Source of the DNA: an uncultured Acidobacteriota bacterium
Lineage (GTDB): Bacteria; Acidobacteriota; Vicinamibacteria; Vicinamibacterales; UBA2999
Assembly: GCA_963750995.1 (NCBI GenBank)
Contig: CAVVST010000003.1
Location: 217,018-281,017, forward strand
Direction: 5' to 3'
Length of the DNA: 64,000 nucleotides
In this document: in pieces, positions 4,467 through 39,136 of the stretch
Numbering within the stretch: the first letter of the stretch is position 1
How the letters are laid out: every line of letters starts with the position of its first letter
The notes under the pieces: model-generated
What the model was told of the DNA's origin: nothing
The model's input: only the letters and a program-made list of their open reading frames with translations
The model's database searches: none
Program-made: the position numbers and the translations under genes

Positions 4467-5563
4467 ACCCACCATTCCGCGCCGATCACGTAGGCAGTCT
4501 GCTGCGACCCCCGCATCTCAAGGATGCGCGCCAGCGGTTCAAGCAGAAGCAGATCCCGAAAGACGAGCTGCGCGCCGTCGAAGACGACGCGATCCGCGAG
4601 GTCGTGCGTCAACAGGAGGCGGTCGGGCTCCAGAGCATCACCGACGGCGAGTTCCGCCGCGAGTTCTTTCACCTCGATTTTCTCCAGCGGTTGCAGGGCG
4701 TGACGACGTCGGCCGGCGTCGGCGCGAAGTTTCACACGCGCGAAGGCGAGATCGATTTCGCGCCGCCCCGCGTGACCGTCACCGGCAAGCTGCGCCACGT
4801 GCAGGACATCCAGACGGCCGACTTCCAGTTTCTGCAATCGGTGACCACCAGGACGCCGAAGGTCGCGATCCCCTCGCCCACCATGGTGCACTTCCGCGGG
4901 GGGCGCAAAGGCATCGACATCACGGCCTACCCCGACCTCGATGAGTTCTTCGAAGATCTGGCGCAGGTCTACCGCGACGAAGTCGCCTCACTCTACGCAG
5001 CCGGGTGCCGCTACATCCAGTTCGACGACACCAACCTGGCCTACCTCTGCGACGAGCAGCAGCGGGCGCAGGCAAAGGCGCGGGGCGACGACCCGAACCA
5101 GCTGCCGCATGCCTACGCGGCGCTGATCAATGCGGTGATCGATGGCCGGCCGAACGATCTGACGGTTGCGGTGCATCTCTGTCGCGGCAACATGCAGAGC
5201 GCGTGGGTTGCCGAAGGAGGGTACGAGCCTGTCGCCGACGCCCTGTTCAATGAACTGCACGTCGATGCGTACTTTCTCGAGTACGACGATGCGCGATCGG
5301 GGGGATTCGAGCCGCTGCGGTTCGTGCCCGACGGCAAGGTGGTCGTGCTCGGCCTGATGACGACAAAAGTCGCCGAGATCGAACCGGTAAATGACCTGGC
5401 CCGCCGGATCGAGGAGGCGACCCGCTACGTACCGCTCGAACGGCTGTGCGTGAGCCCGCAGTGCGGCTTCTCGAGCACGGTGCACGGCAATCAGATTACC
5501 GAGGCGGATCAGTGGGCCAAGCTCGAGCGGCTGCTCGAGCTGACCCGCCAGGTCTGGAGATGA
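4463..5563 (+). CDS. MetE-like single-domain protein (cobalamin-independent methionine synthase C-terminal family)
   Basis: 366 aa with FRADHVGSLLRP..., ITDGEFRR, LCVSPQCGFSS. The start overlaps the upstream stop (ATGA at 4463-4466). Confidence 0.75.
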   Translation: MNPPFRADHVGSLLRPPHLKDARQRFKQKQIPKDELRAVEDDAIREVVRQQEAVGLQSITDGEFRREFFHLDFLQRLQGVTTSAGVGAKFHTREGEIDFAPPRVTVTGKLRHVQDIQTADFQFLQSVTTRTPKVAIPSPTMVHFRGGRKGIDITAYPDLDEFFEDLAQVYRDEVASLYAAGCRYIQFDDTNLAYLCDEQQRAQAKARGDDPNQLPHAYAALINAVIDGRPNDLTVAVHLCRGNMQSAWVAEGGYEPVADALFNELHVDAYFLEYDDARSGGFEPLRFVPDGKVVVLGLMTTKVAEIEPVNDLARRIEEATRYVPLERLCVSPQCGFSSTVHGNQITEADQWAKLERLLELTRQVWR

Positions 5564-9778: not shown

Positions 9779-10022
9779 CGCTTCCGGCGATGTCCCCTTC
9801 TAACCGCGCCTGATTCATGTCGACTGCCGAGGGTCCGGAGTTTCGAATCAGTGCGGCCCAGGCGAACGCGACTCAATTCCGCATGCCCAGTTACAAGCGT
9901 GTCAGTGGCTGCGTGTACCGGTTTGCCCCAGTTCCTACTACACTGTGCCCGTTCACAGGAACCACTGGTCCACGTGACGGACACGAAACGCGGGCTTATC
10001 GACAAATGTAAAGGAGACCCCG

Positions 10023-11096
10023 ATGGGTAGCAGCACGATCAGCAGGATCCTGATGGGTTTGGTCGCCGTGGCGATAGTGGCCTCAGAGGCCTTTGCCCAG
10101 GCGCCGCCGGCACAGGCGCCGCGTCGATCTATTGAGCAGATTAATGGTGGCGTTTACACCGCGTCGAACAACAACCACCGCACCGTCTTCCTGGTTACGC
10201 CGGAAGGCATTCTTCTATCGGACCCGATCAACGCCGACTTCGCCAAATGGCTCAAGGCGGAGTTGGCCACGCGTTTCAAGGTTCCGGTCAGGTATGTCGT
10301 CTACAGCCACCACCACTGGGACCACGCTTCCGGCGGCGAAGTCTTCGCCGACACGGCGCGGTTCGTCGGTCATGCCAACATGCTCTCGCACCTGGCAATG
10401 CCGCCGGCGTCCACCACGCTGGCGCAGGTCGTCGGGCAGTATCAGCCGGTGACGAAGTTCGATACCAATGGCAATGGACGGATTGAAAAGGCAGAAACGC
10501 CCGACGCCTTCCAGCGAGGCCAGTTCGACGCGTTCGACGCGAACAAGGACGGCGTGCTCACTGGCGCTGAGGTTGCACGTGGACCCGTGAGCTTCGTGCG
10601 CCCGCCCGAAATTACATACAAAGACAAGCATCAGCTCACCCTGGGCGGGAAGCGGGTGGACATCAGCTGGGTTGGCGAGATGAATCACTCGAGGGATTCG
10701 AGCTTCATAGCGTTTCCCGACGACAGCGTGCTGTTCCTGGTCGACTTCGTGTCGTTCCGGCGGCTTCCCAATCAGGAGATGGACTACGAGAACGGGCAGT
10801 GGCCGGAGTGGATGGCCGCGATCAAGAAAGGGGAAGCGTTGGCCGGGGGCTTCAAGTTCGTGGCGACCGGCCATGGACCGGTGGGCACCGTGAAGGACAT
10901 CACCGCGTGGCGGGTGTACTTCGAGAAGCTCCAGGACCAGGTGGCCGCCGGCATCAAGGCGGGCCAGACGCTGGAACAGATGCAGCAGAACATCAAGATG
11001 GCCGAGTACAGTCAGTGGGACGGCTTCAACTGGGTGCCCCTCAACGTCCTGGGGATGTACCACTTCCTGACGGAGGGCAAGCCGGCCGCCCGCTAA
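10023..11096 (+). CDS. secreted metallo-beta-lactamase-fold hydrolase with an inserted EF-hand pair
   Basis: AAGGAG Shine-Dalgarno sequence and a signal peptide ...ASEAFAQ. HxHxDH motif (YSHHHWDHASGG). Two canonical 12-residue EF loops, DTNGNGRIEKAE and DANKDGVLTGAE, at 10461-10571. Confidence 0.8.
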   Translation: MGSSTISRILMGLVAVAIVASEAFAQAPPAQAPRRSIEQINGGVYTASNNNHRTVFLVTPEGILLSDPINADFAKWLKAELATRFKVPVRYVVYSHHHWDHASGGEVFADTARFVGHANMLSHLAMPPASTTLAQVVGQYQPVTKFDTNGNGRIEKAETPDAFQRGQFDAFDANKDGVLTGAEVARGPVSFVRPPEITYKDKHQLTLGGKRVDISWVGEMNHSRDSSFIAFPDDSVLFLVDFVSFRRLPNQEMDYENGQWPEWMAAIKKGEALAGGFKFVATGHGPVGTVKDITAWRVYFEKLQDQVAAGIKAGQTLEQMQQNIKMAEYSQWDGFNWVPLNVLGMYHFLTEGKPAAR

Positions 11097-11175: not shown

Positions 11176-11679
11176 TCAGTTCGGACCCGCGGAAAGATAC
11201 GCGATCAGCGTTTGCCGTTCCGCCGCCGTCAGCGACGCGCCGAGGGTGACCATCTGGTCGAGGATCGTGTTCCAGTCGCCGGACGCTGACTTGATGCGCG
11301 CCCGCTCGAGGTCATGGCACTGTTGACAACGCCGGGCCAGGATTGCGGTCGCCTCGTCAGCCGCACCTCCTCCCTGGTTGGTCGCCGCCCTGCCGCCCTG
11401 TGGCTGGCCCCGGCCGGTGCCGGTCGCCAGGTAAGCGGTGATCGCGTCGATTTCGTCCGGATACACCTGGGCTCCCCGGCCGATCATGCGATAGACCGTG
11501 TCTTTCCACTCGTCCGCCGACTTCTTGCGCACCTCCAGCATCCGGTTGAGGCCGATGTGGCACGTGACGCACACCTGGTTGACGGCGACCCGCCCCTTCT
11601 CGATCTGGGCTTGTGACGGAGCCTGCCCGGCGAGGGCACGCGACGCGACGGCCTGTGTACCAGCTGCCATCCACACCAT
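11176..11679 (-). pseudogene. dihaem c-type cytochrome, paralogue of 17715-18353, with start codon/N-region lost at a rearrangement junction
   Basis: Two CxxCH motifs (CVTCH, CQQCH), each followed by a W-x3-[VI]-x-[RQ]M motif. An in-frame hydrophobic segment (..WLAAIVSFALWVAMVWMAAG) continues upstream of 11679 with no start codon, up to the junction at about 11720. Confidence 0.55.
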
Positions 11680-11726
11680 GGCAACCCAGAGCGCGAACGA
11701 GACGATGGCAGCCAGCCAGCGAGGTG

Positions 11727-12056
11727 GGAGATTCGATCGGCTGGTGGGAGGGCGACACGCTCGTGGTGGACACCACCTTCAACGGCAAGACGCGGATGGC
11801 GCTCGGTGGCGATTATTACAGCGCGAACGCGCACGTCGTCGAGCGCTTTACTATGAAGGATTCCGAAACCATCACCTGGACGATGACGGTGACCGACCCC
11901 ACCGTGTTCACGCGGCCCTGGACGTTCACGACGGCCGCGCCGATGGCGCGCCAGCGCGAGGGCAGCAACGACTGGAACCGCGCGTTACGACTGCTGGATC
12001 CCGCCTGGGAGTACGACTGTCACGAGGGGAATGTCGTGCTCAAGCACATGCAGAAC
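11727..12056 (+). pseudogene. 3' fragment of a 'GxWEGDTLVVDT'-family gene (paralogue of 22648-23598)
   Basis: GDSIGWWEGDTLVVDTTFNGKTRMALGGDYYSANAHVVERF...DPAWEYDCHEGNVVLKHMQN aligns residue-for-residue with the C-terminal third of 22648-23598. The 5' two-thirds and the last ~25 codons are absent. Confidence 0.7.
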
Positions 12057-12337
12057 GTCGGCGCCTCGACGGTCACCCGGCTGCCATCGAGCTTGTAGAC
12101 GGCCGCGAATGGTGATTGCCGCACGCTGCTGCGCTTCACCGAGAGCTCGGTCGGCGACTGGGCGACGACCATCTGGCTCGGAAAGGGCACGTCGGCCCCG
12201 TTCCCCGCGACTTCCGGCCCGCTCTTGTCGTAATTGAGCACCCAGGTTCCGCTGAGATCAGGCCTGCCCTCGGCGAGCGACCCCGGGGACGCCGCCAGCC
12301 CGAGGGTGGCGGCCAACATAATCAGCGCTCGATTCAT
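12057..12337 (-). pseudogene. 5' fragment of a lipocalin-like secreted protein gene (paralogue of 23629-24126 and 42890-43393)
   Basis: GGAGGGG Shine-Dalgarno sequence, then MNRALIMLAATLGLAASPGSLAEGRPDLSGTWVLNYDKSG...AVYKLDGSRVTVEAP. Homology stops at about 12057, where the convergent WEGDTL fragment abuts. Confidence 0.7.
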
Positions 12338-12491
12338 GGAGCCCCTCCACACAGCGCCGTAAGTCTAGACCCTGCCCCACTTGCAGACTTGACTCCTGCG
12401 CGGATCCTCTGTATCAGGGTGGTGCCGCGAAACGGCTCATGCGACATACTTGACGGTTCCGGCGGAGGAAGGATCTGAACGGAGGATAGTC

Positions 12492-15438
12492 GTGCTCAGA
12501 ATTGGCAAGGTTGGAGCGATTTTCGTGTTTGCGGTGTTCATGCCACTCGTGGCGTCCGCGCAGGCTGTGATCAGCGGCGTGGTGAGGGACGCGTCGGGCG
12601 CCGTGCTTCCGGGTGTGACCGTGGAAGCATCGAGTCCCGCACTCATTGAAAAAGTACGGACGACCGTGACCGACGGCACCGGCCAATATGCGATCGAGAA
12701 TCTGCGTCCCGGCCAGTACATGGTGACCTTTACGCTGCCGGGGTTTGCCACGGTGGAGCGCGAAGGGGTTGAGCTGTCGGGCAGCTTCAACGCCCGCATC
12801 AACGCCGACCTGCGAGTCGGCGCCGTGGAAGAAACCATCACCGTCACCGGAGAAACCCCGGTGGTCGACGTGGCCAGCACCCGGCAGCAGCGCGTGCTCG
12901 ACCGGGAAATTCTCGACGCTCTGCCGAATTCAGGCCTCCGCACCGGTCTCGGCGTGCTGATTCCGGCCGTGGACTTCCGGCGTCAGGACGTCGGCGGCGC
13001 CGGTGTCCGAGCAGTGACGGGCAACATGGTTGCCCATGGCGCCAGGTCGGAGGACGCGGGAACGACCCTGAACGGCATGACGATCGCGACGTTCGGCACT
13101 GGCGCGGCCACCGCGACGATCTTCCTGAACCCGATGGGACTCCAGGAAATGACGGTGTCGACCGGAGCCAATGATGCCGAGCTGCACGCCGGCGGTGTCC
13201 GCACGAACTACGTGCTGCGCGAGGGCGGCAACGCGTTCAACGGCGTCGTCTTCGGGGCGTACGCGCCGGGCAAGTGGCAGGCGGACAACCTGACCGATGA
13301 ATTGCGGAACCGCGGCCTCGCCGCGCCGAACAAGATCCGGGCGAACTGGGATATCAATCCAGCCTTCGGCGGCCCGATCATGCGGGACAAGATCTGGTTT
13401 TTTGGCGCCGCCCGCTACAACGTCAACGAAGACTACGTTGCGGGCCTCTTCTGGAATAAGAACGCCAACAACCCCAGCGCCTGGACCTACGAGCCCGACA
13501 CTACTCGCCGGGTCTGGAATGAGCAGAGACAGCCCGACACGCAGTTGCGCGTCACCTGGCAGGCGACACCGCGCAACAAGATTGGCGGCACTTATTACAA
13601 CACCAGCTACTGTTTCTGCCCGACCGACGCCTCCGGGGTTCTTTCATGGGAAGCGGGCCAGCGCGCCGAGTATCCCTATCAGCGCCTGTTCGCCGGCGAC
13701 TGGACGGCGCCACTCACCAACCGCTGGCTGCTCGAAGTGAGCGGACAGGTCTACAACTCTGAGAGCAACCGTTCGCCCTGGCCAGACCTGGCGGATGGGA
13801 TGATCCCGGTGCAGGAACAGAACACAGGCATGCGGTACCGCGCCCAGGAAATGTTCCGCATCCAGGATCAGGACGTCTATACGCTCCGCGGCACCTTCTC
13901 CTACGTGACCGGAGCGCATGCCATCCGGGTCGGCGGCTCCAACCGTAGCGGCAACCTCGGCCAGCTCGAGTACAGACATATCCCCGGTCAGCTATCGCCT
14001 GCGGGGCGGCGTGCCCAACCGGATCACCCAGCGGGCGCTCAGCTCATGGAGAGCCAATGTCGGTGCCGACCTGGGCTTGTTCGTCCAGGATCGCTGGACG
14101 CGGAACAAGATGACGCTGACCTACGGGCTGCGCTACGACTACTTCAGCAGCAGCTACCCCGAACAGCACATCGGTCCGACGACGCTGGCGCCGACGCGGA
14201 ACATCACGTTCCCGGAGCAACCAGCGCTTGGCACGCTGCACGATCTCTCGCCGAGACTGGGCGCCGCTTATGATCTGTTCGGCGACGGCAAGACCGCGAT
14301 CAAGGCGAGTCTCAACCGCTACGTGCTGGCGATGGGCCCGGACGTGAGCTTCATTCAGCTCGCCAATCCATCGCGCAACCTGGTCACCAGCGCGACCCGG
14401 ACCTGGAACGACGCCAACCGCAACTACGTGCCCGAGTGCGACCTGCTGAACAACCGCAGCAACGGCGAATGCGGCGCGTTGTCGAACGAAAACTTCGGCA
14501 CCGTGGTCACCAACCTCACCTACGACACCGAGACATTGACCGGCTGGGGCAAGCGGAACTTCAACTGGGAGGTGTCAGCCGGCGTGCAGCGTGAAGTGGC
14601 GCCCGGAATTTCGGCCGAGCTCAGTTACTTCCGCCGCTGGTATGGCAACTTCGTCCTGACCGACGACCTTGCCATCGGACCGGCAGACTTCGATCGCTTC
14701 GTCCTCACCGCGCCGACCGACCCGCGGCTGCCCGACGGCGGCGGGTACCAGATCGAGGGCTACGACATCAAGCCGGCCAAGTTCGGCGTCGCGGCGCAGC
14801 CCTATGTGACGCTCTCGCGGAAGTACGGCGATCAGACGGACAAGTGGAACGGCGTCGATGCGACGCTCAACGCGCGGCCGCGCCCCGGCCTGTTCTTCCA
14901 GGGCGGCGTGAGCACGGGAAAACGGGTTGAAGACAACTGCGACGTGATTGTAAAGGTCGACAATCCCAGCCCGCTGTATTGCCACCGCGACGAGCCCTGG
15001 CTCACGTTCGTGAAGGGCTACGGCTCCTACACGATTCCTCGCGTCGAGGTGCAGGTCAGCGGCACCTACCAGACCAAGCCAGGTCCGCTGGTGCTGGCGA
15101 TCTACACGGCGACCAACGCCGAGGTCGCGCCAAGCCTCGGGCGCAACCTGGCGGGCGCCGCGCCAAGCGTGGACGTCCACCTCTTGTCGCCAGGGCCATA
15201 CACCACCACCAATGGCGGTTCAGGACCCGTGCACGGCGCACGGCTCCACCAGGTCGACTTCCGGATCTCGAAGCTGCTGCAGTTCGGCGGCACCCGGACA
15301 CGGGCGAACATCGACATCTACAACGCCCTCAACTCGAGCGCGGTGCTGATCCAGAACGACACTTACGGAGATTGGCAGCGGCCGACCGAGATCCTGGTCG
15401 CACGGTTCCTGAAGTTCAGCGTGCAGTTTGATTTCTAG
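12492..15438 (+). pseudogene. TonB-dependent receptor (CarboxypepD_reg-type N-terminus), single frameshift (TBDR1)
   Basis: GTG start at 12492 after GGAGGA. It is highly similar by eye to intact TBDR2 and ends ...LVARFLKFSVQFDF. ORFs 12450-14273 and 13918-15438 join if the A at 13974 (gagtacAgacata) is removed, giving ..LEYDISPVSYRL.. Confidence 0.85.
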
Positions 15439-15605: not shown

Positions 15606-16019
15606 TCAGCGCGCGTCTGCGCCGACTTCGTCGCTCGTGAATTCCTTCTTCGACTCGACCAGCGTGAAGCTGCTTGCGTTCACTGTCGGCGTGCCGTCCT
15701 TCGCGAGGAAGCCCTTCACGACGACTTCGGCGCCGATGAAGTCCTCGCGGCGGAGGCCGGCGCGGAGCAGGTTGCTGGCTCCGGCGCTTTCGATTTCCCA
15801 GGTCACCATCTGGCCGGTGGTCGGGTTCTTCACGTCGATGTAGATGTGCGCGTGGGGATTCTGCCACCCCATCTTGCTCACCACGCCCCGCAGCGTGACC
15901 GGCTTGTTGCCGTCGTACACCGCCGAGAACGAGTGATGCGCCTCGACCGCAGCGACGGCTCCGAGCAGCGCCACCAGGGTTCCTGCGGCGAGTGCGGCGA
16001 ACGCGGACTTGCTACGCAT
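15606..16019 (-). CDS. small secreted 'A-HH / WxNPH' protein (DUF6152-like), copy 1
   Basis: GGAGG Shine-Dalgarno sequence. MRSKSAFAALAAGTLVALLGAVAAVEA|HHSFSAVY...GWQNPHAHIYIDV. Confidence 0.7.
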   Translation of the reverse strand: MRSKSAFAALAAGTLVALLGAVAAVEAHHSFSAVYDGNKPVTLRGVVSKMGWQNPHAHIYIDVKNPTTGQMVTWEIESAGASNLLRAGLRREDFIGAEVVVKGFLAKDGTPTVNASSFTLVESKKEFTSDEVGADAR

Positions 16020-16169
16020 AGTGCCTCCTGTTGCTCCGAGACTTTCCTGATGCCGCAGACGGCGTCGCCGGTTCTCAGATGAGGTCCTCATGATCAGCGG
16101 AGAGGACAGGCGCATTCCGGGGCGGCGTTTCCGCGGCCCGGAATGCGCTCGAGATGGCAGGCTCGATCG

Positions 16170-17114
16170 TTACTGGGCGCCGCCCCGCAGGCGCTCCTCG
16201 GCTTCTTTCCTCCCCTCCGGCGTCATCTTCTCGAAGGCGAACGCATCCTCGTTCGCCGTGCAGAGGTATTCCGACCAGACGTCGTTCGGATCCTGCGCCA
16301 GCGTCCAGGTGTGCGGCGCCGACACCAACGGCTTCAGAAGCACAACGGGATCGATGACGGTGTACTGGTAGGTCAGATAGTGCTTCGAGTTCCGGGTGAA
16401 GCGCTCGATCACGCGCTCCTCGGGGCTGTGCGTCCAGGCGTTGTTGTCTCCCCTCGCTCCGACCGAGATGTTCCGCATCCGCGTGTCGATCGCAATCGTG
16501 TCGACGACCAGCGTATCGCCTTCCCAGTGGCCGACGGACTCGCCGTTGAATGTGACGTCGGGGCTCTTCGAGTGCGGACGCCCATCGGTCGGGATGCGCC
16601 TGATGGTCTGCGGGAATTCAGTCAAGATCCAGACGGCGCCCGGCTTCTGGATGATCTCCATCGGGCCGTGCTCGGTGGCCTGCGTCGTGATCGACGTCGG
16701 CGTGCCGCCGGGCGCACAGGTCCCGTACGGCGTCGGAAACTGGTACTTCGCCTTCGTTTCCGGCCTGAACTCCGCCGCCGGCTGCGGCGTCACCGCGGGG
16801 TCGTACTGGCCCATGACGTCTTCGCCGAGCCGGTATCCGCCCTGGAGCATCCGTCCGGCTCGGTTCGGATAGTACCGCCCGGTGAGGTCCGGCTTCCCGT
16901 CTTCTGCGCGCGGGGCGGGGCCGCCGTTGGGCAATACCTTCACGTCGCCGAAGTTCCCGGCGATACGCGACCAGTCCTTGGCCTGCGCATCCTGTGCCGC
17001 CTGAGTGTTCTGTGCGTTCTGCGCTTCGATCGGCATCGACAGTACGACCGCCGCCGCCAGCCCGAGTCCCGCGCGCACCCACGGTCCGCAGCCCCGCCGT
17101 GTCATTCCTTGCAT
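16170..17114 (-). CDS. secreted 'GxWEGDTLVVDT'-family protein, copy 1
   Basis: GGAGGG lies 6 nt upstream of the ATG at 17114. Signal-like WVRAGLGLAAAVVLSMPIEAQ. Motif VGHWEGDTLVVDTIAID; C-terminal region HYLTYQYTVIDPVVLLKPL. Confidence 0.7.
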   Translation of the reverse strand: MQGMTRRGCGPWVRAGLGLAAAVVLSMPIEAQNAQNTQAAQDAQAKDWSRIAGNFGDVKVLPNGGPAPRAEDGKPDLTGRYYPNRAGRMLQGGYRLGEDVMGQYDPAVTPQPAAEFRPETKAKYQFPTPYGTCAPGGTPTSITTQATEHGPMEIIQKPGAVWILTEFPQTIRRIPTDGRPHSKSPDVTFNGESVGHWEGDTLVVDTIAIDTRMRNISVGARGDNNAWTHSPEERVIERFTRNSKHYLTYQYTVIDPVVLLKPLVSAPHTWTLAQDPNDVWSEYLCTANEDAFAFEKMTPEGRKEAEERLRGGAQ

Positions 17115-17175
17115 CTCCGACCCTCCATCCGGTTGCGCATGAATCCCGATACAGGTCACATCAGCGCGAGCGGCG

Positions 17176-17631
17176 CTATTTGTCCCAGAAACTGAGTTTC
17201 TCGGGCGTCATGTTCCGCTCGACCACCTGCCCGACGATACGAATGACACCGTCCGCCAGCTTGATATATTCCGCGGCGCCTCTGTTCGTGCCGTCAATCG
17301 TGAAGGCACCCGCCCTGGCGGCGCAGCCCCGGGCGTGCATCACCTTGCCTATTGCGCTCTCGAAGTGCTCGCGCGTCGTGCCGTTACGCCGCAGCGCGTT
17401 CGGCGTGATCATTTCCAGCCGCCAGGGCTGAACCTTGCCGCTGGGCTCCTTCACATCCATGCGCAGCCACGCGTGCGGGTTTTCCCATTCGATCCCGGTC
17501 AGCGGTCCTGTGAGGTCCATGCACTTGGTCGAATCGAACTCCACCCCGAATGAATGATGGGCAAGCGGCGAATTCGCGGCGCCGAGCAGAACCAGCAGGG
17601 CGGTAACAAAGGCGGCAAACTGAACTTTCAT
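17176..17631 (-). CDS. small secreted 'A-HH / WxNPH' protein, copy 2 (longer C-terminus)
   Basis: GGAGGA Shine-Dalgarno sequence. MKVQFAAFVTALLVLLGAANSPLA|HHSFGVEF...IEWENPHAWLRMDV. Confidence 0.7.
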   Translation of the reverse strand: MKVQFAAFVTALLVLLGAANSPLAHHSFGVEFDSTKCMDLTGPLTGIEWENPHAWLRMDVKEPSGKVQPWRLEMITPNALRRNGTTREHFESAIGKVMHARGCAARAGAFTIDGTNRGAAEYIKLADGVIRIVGQVVERNMTPEKLSFWDK

Positions 17632-17714
17632 GAGAGGTGTCTCCTCCGGGGGCGCGGTCCCCGGAAATACGCTATACGTTGCGCTGCTTAAACTACTTGC
17701 GGGTACGTCATCTG

Positions 17715-18353
17715 TCAATCAATCACCCTGCCGAGCGCGGCGGAAGGCGCTACTGCGGCCGGGCGTTCGAGATACGCGGTCAGCGTCTGGTGCTCCGCAG
17801 GGGTGACCGGGGCGCCCAGCTTCACCATGCGGTCGATGATCGAGTCCCAGCTCTCGGCGGTCGCCGGCTTCGTCGTCGCCATCGCGAGGTCGTGACAGAG
17901 CTGGCACCGGCGCGCGAGGATCGCGGTGGCGTCGCCATCGGTCGCCGCAGTCGTGGCCCCGGCGGCGCGACCGCGTCGACCTGCCGCGGCTGGGGCGCCA
18001 CCTGCCGGCTGCGGGGGGACCTGTCCCCCGGTCGCCGTGAGATACGCCGTGAGCGGCTCGATCTCGTCCGGGAAGACCTGCGCTCCCCGGCCGATCATGC
18101 GATAGACGGTGTCCCTCCACTCGTCCGCGGTCTTCTTTCGAACTGCCACCATCCGCATGATGGCGCCGCCGTCGTGGCACCCCACGCAGATCTGCGTCAC
18201 CGCGGCCTTCCCCTTCTCGATGTCAGCTTGCGGCGCAGGCACCGCCTGTACGGGAACGAGGACGCGCGGTGCGCCGCTCGTGCCTTCGACACCGGGCGCC
18301 GCCCACACGGCGACCATCCACACGGCGAGGCATACGGGAGTGATCTGTCGCAT
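17715..18353 (-). CDS. dihaem c-type cytochrome (exported)
   Basis: ATG at 18353 overlaps the stop of the upstream ThDP gene (TAATG). Signal MRQITPVCLAVWMVAVWAAPG. CVGCH and CQLCH, each followed by W-x3-[VI]-x-RM (WRDTVYRM, WDSIIDRM). Confidence 0.75.
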   Translation of the reverse strand: MRQITPVCLAVWMVAVWAAPGVEGTSGAPRVLVPVQAVPAPQADIEKGKAAVTQICVGCHDGGAIMRMVAVRKKTADEWRDTVYRMIGRGAQVFPDEIEPLTAYLTATGGQVPPQPAGGAPAAAGRRGRAAGATTAATDGDATAILARRCQLCHDLAMATTKPATAESWDSIIDRMVKLGAPVTPAEHQTLTAYLERPAAVAPSAALGRVID

Positions 18354-20335
18354 TACACAGTCCTCGCCTTGCGCTGGATCTCGGCGATCGAGTGCCGCTG
18401 GTACCACGTCGGCTGGGACAGCGACGGACCGTCTTCTTCCACCTCGATGTCCATCAGCACGGCCTTGCCGTCGCGCATGCTGTGGATGGCGCGCTGCAAG
18501 GCGGGGACGAGCTCGCCGGCGTTGCGCACCCTCTCGCCCCGCAGGCCGTAGGCTTCGCCAATCTTTGCGAAATCGACGTTGGGGTCGCCAAGGTAGCCGT
18601 TATAGTCGCGGCCCTCTTCGAAGAACCGCCCGCCGCCGTTCATGTTGCGGGCGCGCGTCTCGTTGTACAGGTGGTTGTTCATGATCACGAGGAGCATGGG
18701 CGCCTCGTACCGCGCGATGCTCCACAGGGCCTCCGACTGGCCGAACAGGAAGCCGCCGTCGCCCTGCAGCGCGACCACCTGGCGCTCGGGGAGCCCGAGC
18801 TGCACGCCGAACGACGCCGCGACGCCCCACCCGAGCGCGGAACCGATGGTGCGGCCGTACTTCGCCTTGTTGTCGCCGCCGAACGTGAATTGGTTCAGCA
18901 TCTTGTAGGCCTGCGTGCCGAGTTCAGGGACGATCACGGCATTCTTGTCGAGCAGGCGTTCGAGCTCGAAGCCGACGCGCTCCCAGCTGAGGGGGCTCCG
19001 ATCGAAGAAGGCGTGGCGGGCGATCTCCCTCGATTTCTTCAGCTCCGCGGTGTGGGCGGACACCTCCGCGAGCCGGGTCGCGCGAATCCGCGCGATGCGA
19101 TCTCTCGTCAGGAGACTGTCAACCGCGTCGGATAAGTCACGAATGGCCAGCCGGACGTCGGACGCGATGGCCAGCTCCACCGGATAGACGCGGCCGAGGA
19201 TCACGGGATCGTGGCTGATGTGCACCGTCGGCGTGCCGGGCTGCGGCTCGCGGCGCTTGAAGCCCTCGCCGAACCCGATCATGAGGTCGGTCTGGCGCGG
19301 ATAGCGCAGCGTGCGCATCTGGCCCATGTACAGCGGGTGATCTGTCGGAAAATTCGCGTAGAGATCGTCCTCGGTGTCCGTGACGGGGACCGACAGCTTT
19401 TCCGCAAGGGCGAGCAGATCCGCGGTCGCTCCGTCCTCGAACACTTCCGGTCCGACGACGAACACCGGGTTTTTCGCTTCGACCAGCCACCGGGCCGCCC
19501 GCTGGATCGCATCGGTGGGGGCGCGGAACTTGTGGCGCGCGTTCGCCAGGTCGATCTTGTCGACACGCTGGCGCACGCGCTCGCCCGCCTGCGCCGTTCC
19601 CCACACCATCGTGACCGGTCCGCTCGGCGGCCCGTACGCAAACCTGATGGCGCGCCGCGTGATCTCGGCCATCTCGTCAGTCAGCAGGTTCGCCGTCCAC
19701 ATCGTGAACGGCTCGGTGGGCCTGAGCGTATCGTCCCAGCTTTCGAAGCCGTCCTTCCCCTGTGCCGACAGGTTTCCGTGCGAGTACGTCACGAGGAGCG
19801 GGACACGGTCCTTCCAGGCGCAGTACAGGTTGCTGATGGAGTTGCCGACGCCTGCGCCGCTGCCGAAAAAGAAGCCGAGGCTGCGGCTCGCCATCGCGTA
19901 GCCCGCGGCCGCAGCCACGGCGTGCCCCTCGTGGGTGACGTTGATGACCTGCACGTCGCCGGCGGCGTCGACCGCCTCCCAGAGCGGACCGAATCCGCTG
20001 GTGTTCGTATGAAAGAGCGTGCGGACACCTGCCGCGCGGAGCTGTGCGAGGACGGCCCCGGCGGCCGTGCCGTCGTACATCTCGAACGTTTCGCCACTCG
20101 GCAACGGACTGGCCACGACGCCCTGCGCGGCGCCCCCCGCTGCGGGCGCCGACCCGGTGGTGTCCTGGGCGAGCGCGGAGACCGACGGCCCCGCCCCGAG
20201 CGCGATACCCGTCACCGCCGTGGCGGCAAGAAAGTCCCGCCGGGACACGGTTGCGGCGTCAGCGTTCCGGCTGGGCGACTGCCCGTCCGCGTCAGTGACA
20301 GGAACGTTCGATGCCGGCTTCTTCGTGGTGCTCAT
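18353..20335 (-). CDS. Tat-exported thiamine-diphosphate-dependent enzyme (ALS/BFD superfamily), copy 1
   Basis: 660 aa. Twin-arginine signal SRRDFLAATAVTGIALGAGPSVSALAQ. Pyr-domain THEGHAVAAAAGYA. ThDP motif LQGDGGFLFG...LLVIMNN. Confidence 0.85.
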   Translation of the reverse strand: MSTTKKPASNVPVTDADGQSPSRNADAATVSRRDFLAATAVTGIALGAGPSVSALAQDTTGSAPAAGGAAQGVVASPLPSGETFEMYDGTAAGAVLAQLRAAGVRTLFHTNTSGFGPLWEAVDAAGDVQVINVTHEGHAVAAAAGYAMASRSLGFFFGSGAGVGNSISNLYCAWKDRVPLLVTYSHGNLSAQGKDGFESWDDTLRPTEPFTMWTANLLTDEMAEITRRAIRFAYGPPSGPVTMVWGTAQAGERVRQRVDKIDLANARHKFRAPTDAIQRAARWLVEAKNPVFVVGPEVFEDGATADLLALAEKLSVPVTDTEDDLYANFPTDHPLYMGQMRTLRYPRQTDLMIGFGEGFKRREPQPGTPTVHISHDPVILGRVYPVELAIASDVRLAIRDLSDAVDSLLTRDRIARIRATRLAEVSAHTAELKKSREIARHAFFDRSPLSWERVGFELERLLDKNAVIVPELGTQAYKMLNQFTFGGDNKAKYGRTIGSALGWGVAASFGVQLGLPERQVVALQGDGGFLFGQSEALWSIARYEAPMLLVIMNNHLYNETRARNMNGGGRFFEEGRDYNGYLGDPNVDFAKIGEAYGLRGERVRNAGELVPALQRAIHSMRDGKAVLMDIEVEEDGPSLSQPTWYQRHSIAEIQRKARTV

Positions 20336-20374
20336 ATGGCGTCCTGTTTCTGGTGAACTCGATCACCCTGGTGC

Positions 20375-21693
20375 CTATCGTATGGCAGACAATTGCTCGA
20401 GCAATTTGCCCCGGGCACTGCTGGCGGGGACGAAGCGCTGAATACGCTGTCCGGCAAACACCTCACCCGTATATATATAGTCCCGGGAATCCACCTCCAC
20501 CATGTGCAGGCCGTAGAACAGGCCGCCCTGGTCGCCCATGGTTCCGACGTTGCCGAGGATCTTCCCGTCCGCCCGGTTGAGGAACCAGACGTGGCTGTTC
20601 GCCATGTCGGAAATGATCAGGTAGCGCTGCTCCTTGTCGGCCGAGAACGCCACGCCGCCGGCGGCGCCGCGGTCCGACGGTGTCATCGGCGAGATCATGA
20701 ACTCGCGGATGAACTTGCCGTCCTTCGTGGTGACGTCGATCCGGTTCGCCCGGCGATCGGCAGCGTATACGAGCCCGTCATTGGAGAAGGCGAGCGTCAG
20801 GTGACCGACGTAGTCCTTGGGGGGTGTACCGCCAGGGGTGTAGACATGATCGGCGTCGTTCGTGCTGATGTCCGCCAGCGGTTTGCCGCGGGCGCCCCAC
20901 CCGCGCTTGAACGCGAACGTGTCGAGGTCGAACACCATGACGCGGCCGCCCAGGTAGCTATCCGCGACAAAGAGCTCGCGCCCGGCTTCGTCGACTCGGA
21001 CCTCCTCGATGCCGCCGACGATCATCGGCGTCGTCGGGGGTACTTTGCGCGGAAGACCGCGGTCGCCGCCGCCGCGGCCGCCGCGTCCGCGTTGCCGCCG
21101 CCGCGGCCGCCGCGCCCGCGCCCGGCCGCGCCTGGAGGCTGCGGAAGAAACCCGGCGATCGGTCCCTGGCCGCCCTGGCCCGGCACCACTTGCGGGAGCG
21201 CCGCCGGCCGATTGGGACCGCCGCCCTCCCGTTCGGGAGCGCGGGGCACCTCGGCGACCATCCTGCCGGTCCTTACGTCGTACTTGCGGACGGTGTCCTG
21301 CCCCAGGTACGCGAAGCCCTTGCTGTCGGTGTCCATCCCGTGGCCCTGCGGGGCCACGAACGATCCGATCACGTTGCCGGTCGAATCGAAATGAATCATC
21401 GAGGGCGGCCGCACGCAGCACGCGGCAAGGGGCGGCGTCGTCTCGGCGCCGAGCTCGAGGTTCGTCAGATCGTTCGGGCGGTTGTAGACCCAGATGCTGT
21501 CGTCGGCCATGATCGAGATCCCCATGACGCCGCCGATCTTCCATTTGTTCGGAAGCGGCCGGGGAAAATCGGGATCGAACTTGTAGCGTGGGGCGGCGTC
21601 GTTCTGCGCCGCGGTTCCCGACTGCAGGAGCATAAGGCCGAGGCCGGCCGCAATGGCGACGGCGATGGGTCGCACGCTACCTGGATGTCTCAT
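20375..21693 (-). pseudogene. secreted NHL-repeat beta-propeller protein, frameshift in a homopolymer (copy 1)
   Basis: ORFs 21022-21693 and 20375-21544 together align end-to-end with intact paralogue 47125-48429. The frame breaks at AVFRAKYP|PTTPMIVGGIEE, where the coding strand has C5 (G-run 21036-21040) and C6 would keep the frame. Confidence 0.75.
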
Positions 21694-21794: not shown

Positions 21795-22634
21795 ATGCGT
21801 TTCATTACCCTCGTCATGATCGCAGCCGCGACCGCTGCCGCCGTGCCGCCCGTCTCACCCGCCGTGGGGGCCCAGGCCCCCGCCGGCGCCGCGTATACCC
21901 CGGGCCGAACGCCCGACGGCCATCCGGACCTGCAGGGCGTGTGGCGCGCCTGGAACCTGGCGAAATACGACCTCGAGGATCACAGCGCGAAGCCGGGGAT
22001 TCCGGCGGGGCGCGGGTTCGTCGTCGATCCGGCCGACGGCAGGATCCCGTACCGGCCCGAGATGTTGGCCCGGCGCCAGAAGAACTACGAGGGCACGCTG
22101 ACGCCGGACCCGATTGCGAACACGGATCCGCTGGCCAAGTGCTACATGCCGGGCGTTCCGCGGCTGACCTATCTCGGGTGGCCGTTTCAGATTATCCAAG
22201 ACCAGCGGGACGTGAACTTCACGTACGAGTGGAGCCACAAGAAGCGGATCGTCCCGATTGGTGACACCAGTCCCCTGCCGGATCCCGACGGCGGCCTGAA
22301 CCTGCGATGGAACGGCATGGCCCGCGGACGCTACGACGGCAACTCGCTCGTCGTCACGCTGGGGAATTTCAACGCCTATAGCTGGTTCGACATGGCGGGC
22401 AACTTCCACAGCGACGCCCTCACGGTCGTGGAGCGCTACACCCCGATCGGCCCCGACACCCTCCAGTACGAAGCGACGATGACCGATCCGAAGGTATTCA
22501 CGCGCCCGTGGACCATTCGTATGGTGCTGCAGCGCCAGAAAGAAGTCGGCCTGCTCGATTACGAGTGCACCGCCATGCTCGATGACCTCGGCATTCATCA
22601 CACCTTTCCGAGAGACTTCGATGTCCAGCAATAG
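21795..22634 (+). CDS. secreted 'WEGDTLVVDT'-family protein, divergent copy 2
   Basis: Signal MRFITLVMIAAATAAAVPPVSPAVGAQ. PDLQGVW...; the motif is degenerate (RGRYDGNSLVVTLGNF). C-terminal region LQYEATMTDPKVFTRPW is shared with the family. Confidence 0.65.
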   Translation: MRFITLVMIAAATAAAVPPVSPAVGAQAPAGAAYTPGRTPDGHPDLQGVWRAWNLAKYDLEDHSAKPGIPAGRGFVVDPADGRIPYRPEMLARRQKNYEGTLTPDPIANTDPLAKCYMPGVPRLTYLGWPFQIIQDQRDVNFTYEWSHKKRIVPIGDTSPLPDPDGGLNLRWNGMARGRYDGNSLVVTLGNFNAYSWFDMAGNFHSDALTVVERYTPIGPDTLQYEATMTDPKVFTRPWTIRMVLQRQKEVGLLDYECTAMLDDLGIHHTFPRDFDVQQ

Positions 22635-22647
22635 GGTAAGGAGCGTC

Positions 22648-23598
22648 ATGCAGAATCGGGCTTCGATCGTCCTGTTGATCGCGGTGCTCCTGGCCGGAGT
22701 GGCCGTCGTCTCCACGCCTGCCCTCGCTCAGGGACGCGGCGGCGGCGCGGGACGCGGCGGCGGCGCGCCCAGGGTGGCGCCGGCCCTTCCCCCGGCCGGG
22801 CCGATCCCGCGCACTGCGGACGGCAAACCTAACCTCGAAGGCGTCTTCAGCGGCATGGGCTCGGGCCTGACGCACACGGTGATTCTCGAGGATCACACCT
22901 CGGGGTTCGGCATTCGCGGCGGCAAGAGCCTGATCATCGACCCGCCCGACGGCGTCATCCCGTACCAGCCGTGGGCGCTCGTCGAGCGGAACAAGCGCCG
23001 GGAAGACGTCAATGCCTATGAGGATCCCGTGGGGCACTGCGAGTTCTACGACATCGGACGCCTGCACTCGTTCGCGCAGCGGTTCATGTACACCGGCGGC
23101 AACATCGCGATCGCGGGCCAGGAGCAGATCGTCCGCATCATCGACATGAACCGCAAACAGCACCTGCCCGCGAGCATTCGACTCTGGAACGGCGACCCGA
23201 TTGGCCGGTGGGAGGGGGACACGCTGGTCATCGACACGACCAATTTCAACGGCAGGACTCGCATGGCGCTCGGCGGCGACTTCTACAGCGTGAACGCGCA
23301 CGTCGTCGAGCGCTACACGATGACCGATTCCAACACCATCACGTGGACGATGACGATCACTGATCCGACGGTGTTTACGCGTCCGTGGACCTTCACCACC
23401 GCGGCGCCGATGACGCGGCAGGTCGAAGGCAGCAACGACTGGAACCGCGCTCTGCGTCTCCTCGACCCGGCGTGGGAACACGACTGCCATGAAGGCAACG
23501 TGGTGCTGCGGCACATGCGGAACCTGTACGACAAGGCGTATGGCGGCAAGCCGCGCCAGCAGACCATACCGGGATCAGTGCCGGCCACCGCGCCCTGA
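22648..23598 (+). CDS. secreted 'GxWEGDTLVVDT'-family protein, copy 3
   Basis: TAAGGAG Shine-Dalgarno sequence 4 nt before the ATG at 22648. Signal MQNRASIVLLIAVLLAGVAVVSTPALAQ. A GRGGG-rich linker, then IGRWEGDTLVIDTTNFNG and TWTMTITDPTVFTRPW. Confidence 0.7.
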   Translation: MQNRASIVLLIAVLLAGVAVVSTPALAQGRGGGAGRGGGAPRVAPALPPAGPIPRTADGKPNLEGVFSGMGSGLTHTVILEDHTSGFGIRGGKSLIIDPPDGVIPYQPWALVERNKRREDVNAYEDPVGHCEFYDIGRLHSFAQRFMYTGGNIAIAGQEQIVRIIDMNRKQHLPASIRLWNGDPIGRWEGDTLVIDTTNFNGRTRMALGGDFYSVNAHVVERYTMTDSNTITWTMTITDPTVFTRPWTFTTAAPMTRQVEGSNDWNRALRLLDPAWEHDCHEGNVVLRHMRNLYDKAYGGKPRQQTIPGSVPATAP

Positions 23599-24455: not shown

Positions 24456-24865
24456 TGCCGCGCCTAACCCGTCAGTCCCTCTGCCCTGCCGCACATGACG
24501 GACGCGGCCTCCGTGTGTGTCGCACCGGCAGGCATCTGACGGGGAAATGCTATGAAGTTTTAGCGGCCATCCGCGCGACGGCGCCGATGCGTGTTCAGGG
24601 TCGCAATGTTGTTCCCGGCATGGCGTCCGCGCAGGCCGTGATCGGGGCCGGGCAAGCAAGCGCGCAAAGCCATCGGAGCCAGAGGGGACGCAAAGCGCGA
24701 TCTGAGCGGTATCGCTAGGACGAGCGCAATTTCACATGTGGCCTGTCCGATTTAACGGAGAGCTCCAAGGCCTAGGGGGGTGAAATGTTATCTACATCCC
24801 AGTGGGCAAAAAGAGTCAGCTTCACCGAAAGGTGGATGCGTCCGTCCCGCAAGAAGAATCAATCT

Positions 24866-26434
24866 ATGAATAGGGGAACAATGCAGACAATGGCGGCGTT
24901 GGGCGGACTGGTTATCGTCTTGATTCTCCTGCCACCGCAACCCTTGCAAAGCCAGGACGAGTCTTTCCCGGTGATGGAGACGACGATCACGGATGTACAC
25001 AATGCGTACAAATCCAGGAGGTTGACTGCCCGGCAGCTCGTTCAGATGTACCTGGATCGGATTGACGCCTACGACAAGAACGGGCCGATGATCAACTCGG
25101 TCATCAACATCAATCCGAAGGCGCTGGAGGAAGCCGACAAGCTTGATGCAGCGATGAGGTCTGGGTTCGTCGGTCCCTTGCACGGAATCCCCGTCGTGCT
25201 CAAGGACATGATCGACGTGGCCGGGTTGCCGACGACGTACGGTTCGTCGATCATGAAGAATTTTGTACCCACCAAGGACGCGTTTGTCGTGGAGAAGCTA
25301 AAGAAGGCGGGTGCGATCATTCTGGCCAAGGTCACTCTGGGTGAGTTCGCCGGAGGAGACACTTATGGTTCGTTGTTTGGCGAGACCCGCAATCCTTATG
25401 ATCCATTGCGTACCGTCGGCGGTTCCTCCGGTGGCACGGGCGCGAGTGTGGCGGCGAACTTCAGCACGATTGGCATCGGCCAGGAGGGCTTTGCTTCTAT
25501 CAGCCGGCCGGCCGCCTGGAACAACATCGTCGGCCTCAGGCCGACTCCAGGCCTGGTCAGTGGTGGCGGATTGGGACCGATGACGCGCACGGTGACGGAT
25601 CTCGCCACCGTGCTGGATGTGATTGCCGGCTATGACCCGGAGAGCCCGGAGACGGCGCTGGGCGTCACACAGGTTCCGGAGAGTTACACCAAGTTTCTGG
25701 ACGCGAACGGCCTGAAGGGTGCGCGCATCGGAGTCCTGCGCGAGCCAATGGGATATTTCAGTGACCCGCAGTCAGCGGACTTCAAAACTGTTACCGGTGT
25801 CTTCGACAAAGCCGTTGCCGAACTGAAGGCCGCCGGCGCCGACGTCGTGGATCCCATAGTGATTCCTCACTTGAACGCTCTCCTGGCCAAGAGACGTCAG
25901 GGCGGCGGAAGACCTTCAGGCATGAGAACGGGCAGCAGGGCGGCCCAGGAACGCAACGACGAGATCAGGCGGTATCTCGGTCAGATACCGAACTCCCCGT
26001 ATAAAACAATGCAGGAGGCTCAGAACGGGCCGGAAAGACGCAGCAAGGGAACGGTGGGCTTTGACGGGGACTACGCCGACTATCGTGTCGCGCAGGATGA
26101 TTTGCTGATCAACACCTTGAAGGTGATGGCAGACCATAAATTAGACGCCATTGTTCACAAGACCGTCGAGCATACGGCGACCTTGATCCGGGACTACACC
26201 AATCCGCCGTACTCGAACATGAAAGGCACTACTCATCTGAGCACATTCCTGGGTCCTATCGCGACGGTCACGGTGCCGGCAGGATTTACACCGGAAGGAC
26301 TGCCGGTAGGGATTACCTTCTTCGGCCGCGCGTATAGCGAGGCAACAATGATCAAGCTGGCCTATGCCTACGAGCAGTCCACTCATCATCGGAAGCCCCC
26401 AAAAACCACGCCGGCACTTTTGGCCAGGCCGTGA
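24866..26434 (+). CDS. secreted amidase (amidase-signature family, GatA-like)
   Basis: LHGIPVVLKDMIDVAGLPTTYGS and GGSSGGTGASVAA are amidase-signature motifs. N-terminal signal MQTMAALGGLVIVLILLPP. Visibly AT-richer than its neighbours. Confidence 0.85.
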   Translation: MNRGTMQTMAALGGLVIVLILLPPQPLQSQDESFPVMETTITDVHNAYKSRRLTARQLVQMYLDRIDAYDKNGPMINSVININPKALEEADKLDAAMRSGFVGPLHGIPVVLKDMIDVAGLPTTYGSSIMKNFVPTKDAFVVEKLKKAGAIILAKVTLGEFAGGDTYGSLFGETRNPYDPLRTVGGSSGGTGASVAANFSTIGIGQEGFASISRPAAWNNIVGLRPTPGLVSGGGLGPMTRTVTDLATVLDVIAGYDPESPETALGVTQVPESYTKFLDANGLKGARIGVLREPMGYFSDPQSADFKTVTGVFDKAVAELKAAGADVVDPIVIPHLNALLAKRRQGGGRPSGMRTGSRAAQERNDEIRRYLGQIPNSPYKTMQEAQNGPERRSKGTVGFDGDYADYRVAQDDLLINTLKVMADHKLDAIVHKTVEHTATLIRDYTNPPYSNMKGTTHLSTFLGPIATVTVPAGFTPEGLPVGITFFGRAYSEATMIKLAYAYEQSTHHRKPPKTTPALLARP

Positions 26435-35745: not shown

Positions 35746-36700
35746 ATGACAAAGACGATGCAACTGAGGCTGATGAGTGGTGTGATAGCCCTCGTGGTCG
35801 GGGCAGGTACCTTGTGGGGACAGGGCAACCCCACGACCGGTGGCCCCCTGGATCCGCTGCTGCTGGAAGATCTCGCCCTGATCGTACCGCATCCTCACCG
35901 ACCATGACGTCATGGACGGCCTCGGACACTCGAGCATCAGACACCCACAGAATCCGAACCGCTACTGGATCTCGCGCAATCGCGCGACCGGGTTGGTCAG
36001 ACCCGAGGATCTGATGGAGATGGACCTCGACTCGCGTCCGGTCGATCCGGACGCGCGGTCCTACAGCGAAGTGGCCATTCACGCGGAGATCTACAAGCTG
36101 CGACCCGACGTCCATGCGGTCATCCACCATCACGCGCCGGGCACGGTGTCGTGGGGCATGGGAAAAATCCCGATGATGCCGATGAACCAGAGCTCCCGCT
36201 GGATGCTCGACGGCGTGCCCTTCTTCGACTACCGCGACCTGAGTAAGCTGATTCCGGGCGACAAGGGCTGGGAGGACACGAACCTGATCGACACGCAAGC
36301 CCGCGGCACTGCCGTGGCCCGGGCGCTCGGTGCGAGCCCGGCGCTACTGCTGGTCAATCACGGCGCTGTGGTGGTCGGCGCCTCGATCTACGAGGCGGTC
36401 GGCCGCAGCATCTACATGGAAATCAACACCGGAGTGCAGACCGCCGCCATGCTGAGAGGCGGAGAGGTCACCTATTACGACGCCGCGGGTGAGCTGAGAG
36501 CGACCGGCGCGCGCAGCGACTTTGCGCGCCAGTGGGACCTCTGGAAGGCCGAGTCATGCGCCAAGGCCGGCTTCTGCAAGCCCGAGCTCGAGGCCGGGCG
36601 TGGAGCCGGCGGGCGTGGCGGACGTGCCGGCGGCGCGGGGGGACGCGGCGGCGGCGGAGGTGGACGCGGACGCGGCGGACGCGGAGCCCCTCCCGAATAA
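35746..36700 (+). pseudogene. class II aldolase/adducin-family protein with signal-like N-terminus and RGG-rich tail; single frameshift
   Basis: AGGAGA Shine-Dalgarno sequence. ATG 35746: MTKTMQLRLMSGVIALVVGAGTLWGQ... runs to a stop at 35905. ORF 35912-36700 carries GLGHSSIRHP...EVAIHAEIYKLRPDVHAVIHHHAP. Removing the A at 35881 (ctgAtcgtacc; the decayed copy has ctgtcgtacc) joins them. Confidence 0.75.
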
Positions 36701-37190: not shown

Positions 37191-37211
37191 GAGAACCTCC
37201 TTCGGCTGCCT

Positions 37212-39119: not shown

Positions 39120-39136
39120 GATGGATAATCGGCGCC

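Follow-up and report, generated by a model that had tools for sequence, protein, structure and literature searches.

In the periplasmic two-subunit dehydrogenases SorAB, FccAB and PchCF, a catalytic subunit exported by the twin-arginine translocation (Tat) system is accompanied by an adjacent, Sec-exported small cytochrome c (mono- or dihaem) that acts as acceptor, and the cofactor of the catalytic subunit is Mo-pterin or flavin adenine dinucleotide (FAD). Oxidative enzymes that depend on thiamine diphosphate (ThDP) are known from another setting: those of the PoxB type catalyse a reaction that feeds the respiratory chain, are found in the cytoplasm or at the cytoplasmic face of the membrane, carry FAD and reduce O2 or quinone. 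Here we describe a six-gene locus (positions 15606-21693) in a stretch of 64,000 nucleotides, hereafter the window, from contig CAVVST010000003.1 of an uncultured Acidobacteriota bacterium of the order Vicinamibacterales, abundant soil bacteria whose feeding is little understood. In this locus a gene for a ThDP enzyme with a Tat signal is followed by a cytochrome c gene, and these two by genes of the families DUF6152 and WEGDTL. The first pair would be a new variation on the theme of a periplasmic dehydrogenase with a cytochrome c, differing from SorAB, FccAB and PchCF in its cofactor, ThDP. We lean towards reading the whole locus as a lineage-specific juxtaposition of two separately conserved envelope modules in an island rich in TonB-dependent receptor genes.

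The six genes lie on the minus strand with intergenic gaps of 39, -1, 83, 61 and 150 nt and encode, in this order, an NHL beta-propeller protein, the ThDP enzyme, a dihaem cytochrome c, a DUF6152 protein (#1), a WEGDTL protein and a second DUF6152 protein (#2) (Table 1). All the genes, coordinates and gaps given in a preliminary description of this DNA were reproduced, and its statement that every product is exported agrees with the signal peptides that we read by eye at the six N-termini, five of Sec type and one of Tat type. No opposite-strand gene interrupts the cluster, as had also been stated: the open reading frames (ORFs) on the other strand gave no family matches and are antisense ORFs expected in DNA of 65% GC. 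Pfam assigned TPP_enzyme_N/M/C to the ThDP enzyme, cytochrome domains to the third gene and PF19649 to both genes previously labelled 'A-HH', and gave no assignment to the WEGDTL or NHL gene. NCBIfam added just weak matches below the cutoff, to ScyF for the NHL gene, to SorB for the cytochrome and to many models for the ThDP enzyme. A common strand and short gaps are what is expected of an operon; the gene order, however, is retained only in relatives with at least 87% identity of the ThDP enzyme, and even some of these have lost the NHL gene or gene 6.

The ThDP enzyme matched Pfam TPP_enzyme_N, TPP_enzyme_M and TPP_enzyme_C with 65, 66.7 and 91.8 bits, all over the cutoffs. In 20 orthologues the catalytic glutamate E136 and the ThDP/Mg motif GDG-X(24-27)-NN, here G525-D526-G527 and N553-N554, are invariant, and S31, R32, R33 and F35 of the Tat signal (SRRDFLAATAV...SALA) are nearly so. 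By its sequence the enzyme is a predicted Tat substrate, a route that would be explained by the fact that the cofactor must be loaded in the cytoplasm. The nearest solved structure by sequence is benzoylformate decarboxylase (MdlC), with an E value of 8e-34 over residues 93-619. The two proteins have in common the catalytic Glu, the GDG...NN motif and His281, the equivalent of which is H333; in place of His70 of MdlC the aligned residue is Gly or Ser, and MdlC is cytoplasmic, non-redox and without a cytochrome partner. With the benzoylformate decarboxylase equivalog model NF005485 the score was 181 bits, short of the cutoff of 493. The three-domain ThDP fold and the Pfam domains are shared with pyruvate oxidase/PoxB, from which the enzyme differs by its Tat signal and its cytochrome c partner.

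The start codon of the cytochrome gene overlaps the stop codon of the ThDP gene (TAATG). Its product matched Dehyd-heme_bind (34.2 bits, cutoff 25.2) and Cytochrome_CBB3 (31.7 bits, cutoff 27), and its second haem domain scored 49.1 bits with the SorB equivalog model NF052246, for which the cutoff is 93. We collected 29 species-level genome loci and one further contig with the ThDP gene, 27 of which had enough downstream sequence. A cytochrome gene lay directly downstream in 23 of the 27 (46-93% identity), all of them from Acidobacteriota metagenome-assembled genomes (MAGs), and this adjacency holds in every locus at 46-52% identity. Homologues of the ThDP enzyme are abundant, and all the stated source names are Acidobacteriota or Vicinamibacterales. 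In addition, the window carries three Tat-ThDP paralogues with about 26% mutual identity, each followed by a cytochrome c gene after a gap of -1, 11 or 21 nt. A TonB-dependent receptor gene immediately precedes the third of these, so that receptor, ThDP and cytochrome genes form a tight run (36762-42158).

Since the adjacent cytochrome c gene is conserved, a redox reaction would be implied, and we infer from the sequences that the pair is a periplasmic ThDP-dependent dehydrogenase which reduces cytochrome c, apparently undescribed. A literature search for a periplasmic or Tat-exported ThDP enzyme with a cytochrome c found nothing relevant; a search of the window with Rfam found no family, hence no TPP riboswitch. 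If these pairs are periplasmic dehydrogenases, ThDP would join pyrroloquinoline quinone (PQQ), flavin and Mo-pterin in periplasmic respiratory oxidation, and a ThDP intermediate would have to pass electrons towards haem, a step for which the literature search found no description.

The other module consists of DUF6152 and WEGDTL genes. The two 'A-HH' proteins are members of Pfam DUF6152 (PF19649; 70.6 bits for #1 and 82.5 bits for #2, cutoff 27). Across 130 sequences of this family His1, His2, Pro28 and His29 of the mature protein are conserved in 100%, Ala-1, Trp25, Asn27 and Glu50 in 98% and Trp47 in 93%. An AlphaFold2 model of DUF6152 #2 (not of #1) had a predicted local distance difference test score (pLDDT) of 83.3 and showed an oligonucleotide/oligosaccharide-binding (OB) fold, and Foldseek matched it to the anticodon-binding domain of lysyl-tRNA synthetase, PriB and SSB with E values of about 5e-4. 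As the first mature residue is invariant, a free N-terminus in a metal or cofactor site is suggested, and the His-His N-terminus, the W-x-N-P-H motif and Glu50 probably form this site. DUF6152 resembles CusF and BOF/YgiW in being a small exported OB-fold protein. It resembles the histidine-brace proteins CopC and lytic polysaccharide monooxygenase (LPMO) in the invariant His straight after the signal-peptide cleavage site; these have a different fold, and a copper role of DUF6152 is putative. Kinship with CusF was considered and rejected, as hhalign gave a probability of 12.5%. Profile searches of the PDB with DUF6152 and with WEGDTL found no solved relatives, and literature searches on DUF6152 and on 'histidine brace' together with 'OB-fold' found nothing.

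The WEGDTL protein had no sequence match in Pfam, NCBIfam or the PDB, and none of 39 aligned members of the family had a meaningful match in Pfam. The family is large: its profile found 15,824 cluster representatives (50% identity) at E<=1e-3 and 8,630 at E<=1e-10. Conserved are a Cys pair, R177, W202-x-x-D-T-L-V, E242, R243 and D260 (ORF numbering), and the alignment has no conserved His. The mean pLDDT of the AlphaFold2 model was 74.7, with 78-95 over most of residues ~150-275, the beta-rich half at the C-terminal end. With 130 C-terminal residues, the best matches in Foldseek were weak ones to the barrels of FABP, CRABP and SAHS proteins (E 1.5e-3, target-normalised TM score ~0.5).

To describe the surroundings of this family we used a WEGDTL-centred metagenome scan of 80 unbiased loci, 524 kb in total. 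A DUF6152 gene was present anywhere in 61 of the 80 loci and adjoined the WEGDTL gene on the same strand in 51. When only the 37 loci with both flanks were taken, DUF6152 was found on both sides in 8, upstream only in 16, downstream only in 1 and not at all in 12, so that it adjoined WEGDTL in 25 of the 37. Other neighbours were rarer: a TonB-dependent receptor gene in 14/80, operon-tight in one locus (L046, gaps of 34-43 nt), NHL in 5/80, ThDP in 2/80 and a cytochrome of the cluster type in 1/80. Genes for PQQ quinohaemoprotein dehydrogenases, metallo-beta-lactamases and a dihaem cytochrome of ~400 aa were recurrent neighbours as well. One predicted protein of 405 aa (P0180) looked like a DUF6152-WEGDTL fusion and was rejected as a read-through of the gene call, for its WEGDTL part retains a signal peptide of its own; it still documents the order DUF6152-then-WEGDTL, at 61% identity. 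DUF6152-WEGDTL is thus a second, independent and robust gene pair. Large in number, unannotated and made up of near-obligate partners, it is a clear target for biochemistry.

The two modules are joined only in close relatives, in several arrangements. One relative, L115/L116 (loci of relatives are given by L numbers), with a ThDP enzyme 87% identical to that of the window, has all six genes in the whole order. L114 (93%) has five, followed by receptor genes where gene 6 would be, and L005 (90%) has five of the six, without NHL. In L007 (81%) an aldolase gene is inserted after the cytochrome gene and the gene-6 orthologue is 12 kb away. When the ThDP enzyme is 62-81% identical, DUF6152/WEGDTL pairs occur on either strand and either side of it, 0-8 kb away, and in the ThDP-cytochrome loci at 46-52% identity no DUF6152, WEGDTL or NHL gene was found within 10 kb. 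The locus therefore consists of separable modules rather than of one fixed six-gene pathway, and its NHL gene is dispensable. A different kind of arrangement was seen in L012-L015, where same-strand units of (DUF6152)-WEGDTL-receptor-ThDP genes are repeated (e.g. L014 4727-11887 and 14019-21385).

The spacers point in the same direction. The preliminary description had cautioned that the larger gaps may hold internal promoters, and this caveat proved apt. In the 83-nt spacer, 58 of the 83 columns are invariant among the window, L114, L115 and L005, including TTGACA-N17-TAGTTT/TAATTT and the ribosome-binding site. We regard TTGACA-N17-TAnTTT as a candidate internal promoter on the strength of its consensus match only; a simple scan of the gaps for promoters and terminators gave nothing above chance. 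The 150-nt spacer contains a hairpin with a perfect 12-bp stem and folds with z = -2.6. L114, L115 and L007 retain the stem, with wobble changes and a single compensatory change of U-A to C-G, while their loops differ; the hairpin and the promoter-like motif are thus each conserved in four loci, although not in the same four. The hairpin is likely to be a transcript end or a processing site. The idea that it is a repeated element was dropped, since the window has a single copy.

Just past the hairpin, at 16104, the colinearity of L114 stops, which places a synteny breakpoint before gene 6. The gap in front of DUF6152 #2 is 17-35 nt in L005, 150 nt in the window and 715 nt in L115, and by orthologue group DUF6152 #2 is distinct from the gene that usually comes third in the triple. 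The long spacer of L115 (8286-9000) contains the hairpin and a degenerate remnant of the C-terminal domain of a ~400-aa CytoC_RC-like cytochrome. In the same locus a DDE transposase gene follows gene 6 (9447-10016), which makes this end of the cluster a hot spot of rearrangement. Because of the conserved promoter-like spacer, the conserved hairpin and the synteny break, the likeliest transcription units are three: NHL-ThDP-cytochrome; DUF6152-WEGDTL, into which transcripts of the first unit may read through; and DUF6152 #2 alone, which is probably transcribed separately.

If the locus is such a juxtaposition of two modules, it may work as follows. The ThDP enzyme would take up its cofactor in the cytoplasm and leave folded through the Tat system, while the dihaem cytochrome would be exported by Sec and receive its haem in the periplasm. 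There the pair would oxidise a substrate of ThDP type, in the simplest case by decarboxylation of a 2-oxo acid. The substrate would enter via an outer-membrane receptor, cytochrome c would relay the electrons to the respiratory chain, and the NHL propeller would be an optional accessory. The DUF6152-WEGDTL pair, which is often beside Oar-like TonB-dependent receptor genes, would capture or handle a ligand or a metal in the periplasm; it would probably be expressed from its own promoter in the 83-nt gap as far as the hairpin, leaving DUF6152 #2 separate. The island resembles polysaccharide-utilisation-type loci of the SusC/SusD kind in that genes for outer-membrane receptors lie together with those for periplasmic enzymes and for small exported accessories, one WEGDTL paralogue being a lipoprotein, and differs from them in that the receptors are Oar-like and not SusC, a SusD is missing, and redox enzymes and hydrolases take the place of glycoside hydrolases. 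A literature search on Vicinamibacter and TonB found nothing useful.

Several observations weigh against this interpretation. In four of the ThDP loci (L012-L015) a dienelactone hydrolase gene replaces the cytochrome gene after ThDP, and we know of no precedent in which a ThDP intermediate hands electrons straight to haem. The DUF6152 model has a pLDDT of <50 at its N-terminus, and the proximity of H1, H2 and H29 is not readable from it; the prediction that the C-terminal domain of WEGDTL is a calycin-like beta-barrel is a weak assignment. Other findings speak for a true functional tie between the modules. The six-gene order persists in L115, and DUF6152/WEGDTL pairs abut the ThDP-cytochrome pair on the same strand, in varied orders, in the window, L005, L006, L010, L031 and L040. 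Finally, every checkable locus of this WEGDTL orthologue group has, ahead of DUF6152-WEGDTL and on its strand, a gene for a cytochrome with two CXXCH motifs. This cytochrome is of the ThDP-linked dihaem type in the window, L005, L114 and L115, and an unrelated, ~400-aa CytoC_RC-like protein in L006, L008, L010, L016, L031, L035 and L036.

These observations bear on the view of the preliminary description that the families are linked in one periplasmic pathway, here taken in its strict form, with all six genes in one operon serving a single substrate. It is favoured by the common strand, the short gaps and the export of all products, by the full order in L115/L116 and the presence of five of the six genes in both L114 and L005, and by the six different arrangements in which DUF6152/WEGDTL genes abut ThDP-cytochrome. 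NHL, WEGDTL and DUF6152 genes also occur together again in L055, L105 and at 47125-49597 of the window; this last group, which had been pointed out before, is real and consists of DUF6152, a WEGDTL lipoprotein (48459-49232, lipobox VAGC) and NHL. We nevertheless consider a single operon unlikely. Distant ThDP-cytochrome pairs are without the other families, ThDP is present in just 2 of the 80 WEGDTL loci, NHL and DUF6152 #2 are each absent from a close relative, and order and orientation are not kept at 62-81% identity. Gene 6 comes after a conserved hairpin and a break in synteny, and gene 4 after a conserved promoter-like motif. What holds of the proposed linkage is the conserved co-occurrence of two gene pairs in receptor-rich islands, ThDP-cytochrome in 23/27 loci and DUF6152-WEGDTL in 51/80, together with the full order in L115/L116; in this lineage the pairs meet at a common cytochrome junction, but as a fixed six-gene set the cluster is not conserved. 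At the other extreme, the modules could be neighbours by chance and without functional relation, given that DUF6152, WEGDTL and receptor genes are so numerous, with 6 DUF6152 and 6-7 WEGDTL genes in the 64-kb window. By a rough count the density of WEGDTL genes is ~0.125/kb within 3 kb of ThDP and ~0.14/kb at 3-10 kb, and therefore the association is one at the level of the island and not of the operon; family-wide, CXXCH ORFs are not enriched near DUF6152/WEGDTL blocks (0.059 vs 0.048 per kb). Mere chance appears unlikely all the same, for the orthologue group stays near ThDP-cytochrome from 62% to 93% identity despite rearrangements, two unrelated dihaem cytochromes fill the same place upstream of DUF6152-WEGDTL, and the WEGDTL-receptor-ThDP units of L012-L015 are repeated on the same strand.

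A closer cooperation can also be imagined, in which electrons pass from ThDP to the dihaem cytochrome and on to a histidine-brace-like copper on DUF6152; this copper would activate O2 or H2O2 to attack a substrate bound by the WEGDTL barrel, much as cellobiose dehydrogenase and LPMO work together in fungi, but in the periplasm. The mature His-His is invariant in 130/130 DUF6152 sequences and H29 and E50 are conserved in 98-100%, this DUF6152-WEGDTL orthologue is always preceded by a cytochrome, of one or the other family, and PQQ quinohaemoprotein dehydrogenases are among the other neighbours. We find such a relay very improbable, however, as the metal site is purely putative, the OB fold is not the beta-sandwich of known histidine-brace proteins, the profile comparison with CusF failed, the family at large shows no enrichment of cytochromes in its vicinity, and WEGDTL is without a conserved His and has nothing that marks it as catalytic. 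It would be quite improbable, too, that everything holds jointly, with the first periplasmic ThDP:cytochrome c oxidoreductases and with DUF6152 as a new OB-fold His-His metalloprotein that, along with the WEGDTL barrel, receives their electrons; if true, bacteria would have in their periplasm an equivalent of the dehydrogenase-LPMO partnership of fungi, acting on recalcitrant soil organic matter imported via TonB-dependent receptors. Under the juxtaposition of two separable modules that we favour, the locus illustrates how mobile modules can make up a mosaic that passes for a neat 'operon', which bears on the annotation of such clusters.

The first gene of the cluster had been reported to carry a homopolymer frameshift, and indeed one base is missing in its C-run at 21036-21040. 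The window reads TACCC-CCG, and at the same point L114 has TACCCGCCG and L007 has TACCCACCG, i.e. the run would be C6. The two ORFs meet at KYP|PTTPM, where the intact paralogue at 47125-48429 (62% identical) has KYPPSTPM. In all probability the frameshift arose in the assembly and has no biological meaning, because three Oar-like TonB-dependent receptor genes are split likewise (12450-15438, 32435-35330 and 39140-42158) and the NHL gene of L115, an Illumina-assembled relative, is intact (438 aa). In the first of these receptor genes the switch of frame was seen by tblastn against an intact paralogue. With NHL there are four split genes within 64 kb, which indicates indel errors in the assembly; related Acidobacteriota MAG loci have splits at other positions. 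Genuine pseudogenisation of NHL was judged unlikely in view of the split receptors, the intact gene of L115 and the missing base in a C6 run. In a phmmer search of the PDB the NHL product matched the NHL domains of Thin and TRIM71 (E 1e-8 to 1e-6), whereas the Pfam NHL model gave an E of 0.2, under the cutoff. With the NCBIfam model of the scytonemin NHL protein ScyF (NF035926) it scored 37 bits, far from the cutoff of 350.

Table 1. Features of the six-gene locus, its flanks and related genes in the window.
Feature	Position	Strand	Remarks
NHL beta-propeller gene	21693→20375	-	439 aa after repair; ORFs 21022..21693 and 20375..21544
ThDP enzyme	20335→18353	-	660 aa; Tat motif SRRDFL
Dihaem cytochrome c	18353→17715	-	212 aa; CVGCH and CQLCH; signal peptide
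Spacer of 83 nt	17632..17714	-	Candidate promoter TTGACA-N17-TAGTTT; GC hairpin; ribosome-binding site GGAGGAG
DUF6152 #1	17631→17176	-	Ribosome-binding site GGAGGAG; cleavage SPLA|HHSF
WEGDTL family protein	17114→16170	-	314 aa; predicted to be exported
Conserved hairpin	16110..16148	-	Begins 21 nt past the WEGDTL stop
DUF6152 #2	16019→15606	-	Ribosome-binding site AGGAGG; cleavage VEA|HHSF
Two divergent WEGDTL-like paralogues	21795-22634 and ~22648-23598	+	Hidden Markov model (HMM) scores 211 and 245 bits
Convergent Oar-like TonB-dependent receptor	12450..15438	+	Pfam CarboxypepD_reg and OMP_b-brl_4; frameshift near 13924-13985
ThDP2	32165→30261	-	Tat motif; monohaem cytochrome c 30249→29878, gap 11 nt
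ThDP3	~39125→37212	-	Tat motif; monohaem cytochrome c 37190→36762, gap 21 nt
WEGDTL-DUF6152 pair	44616-45923	+	
Extra DUF6152 genes	49748-50119 and 50333-50710	+ and -	

The flanks are part of the conserved block. On one side the two divergent WEGDTL-like paralogues share a control region of 101 nt with the cluster, and their position is unchanged in L005, L007, L114 and L115; on the other side lies the convergent TonB-dependent receptor gene. When the window was searched by BLASTP and with custom HMMs, two NHL, three Tat-ThDP, six DUF6152 and six or seven WEGDTL genes were counted, and it also holds two dihaem cytochromes of the cluster type and four Oar-like TonB-dependent receptor genes.

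An orphan dihaem cytochrome gene (11176-11679), 52% identical to that of the cluster, adjoins a truncated WEGDTL-like fragment (11613-12098). Pieces of 11176-12257 match portions of the L005, L007 and L115 clusters at 67-80% nucleotide identity, and the region has the look of a partial copy of the locus that was rearranged. A small exported protein is encoded on the minus strand (42890-43621), upstream of the receptor-ThDP-cytochrome run; it has an N-terminal 'RPDLSGTW' as in WEGDTL proteins and did not match the WEGDTL HMM. Around the locus lie catabolic genes (3486-5563, 10023-11096, 24785-26434, 35912-36700 and 50803-52035), of the kinds extradiol-dioxygenase-like, metallo-beta-lactamase with EF-hand, amidase, class II aldolase and epoxide hydrolase, and lactonase and aldolase genes recur in related loci.

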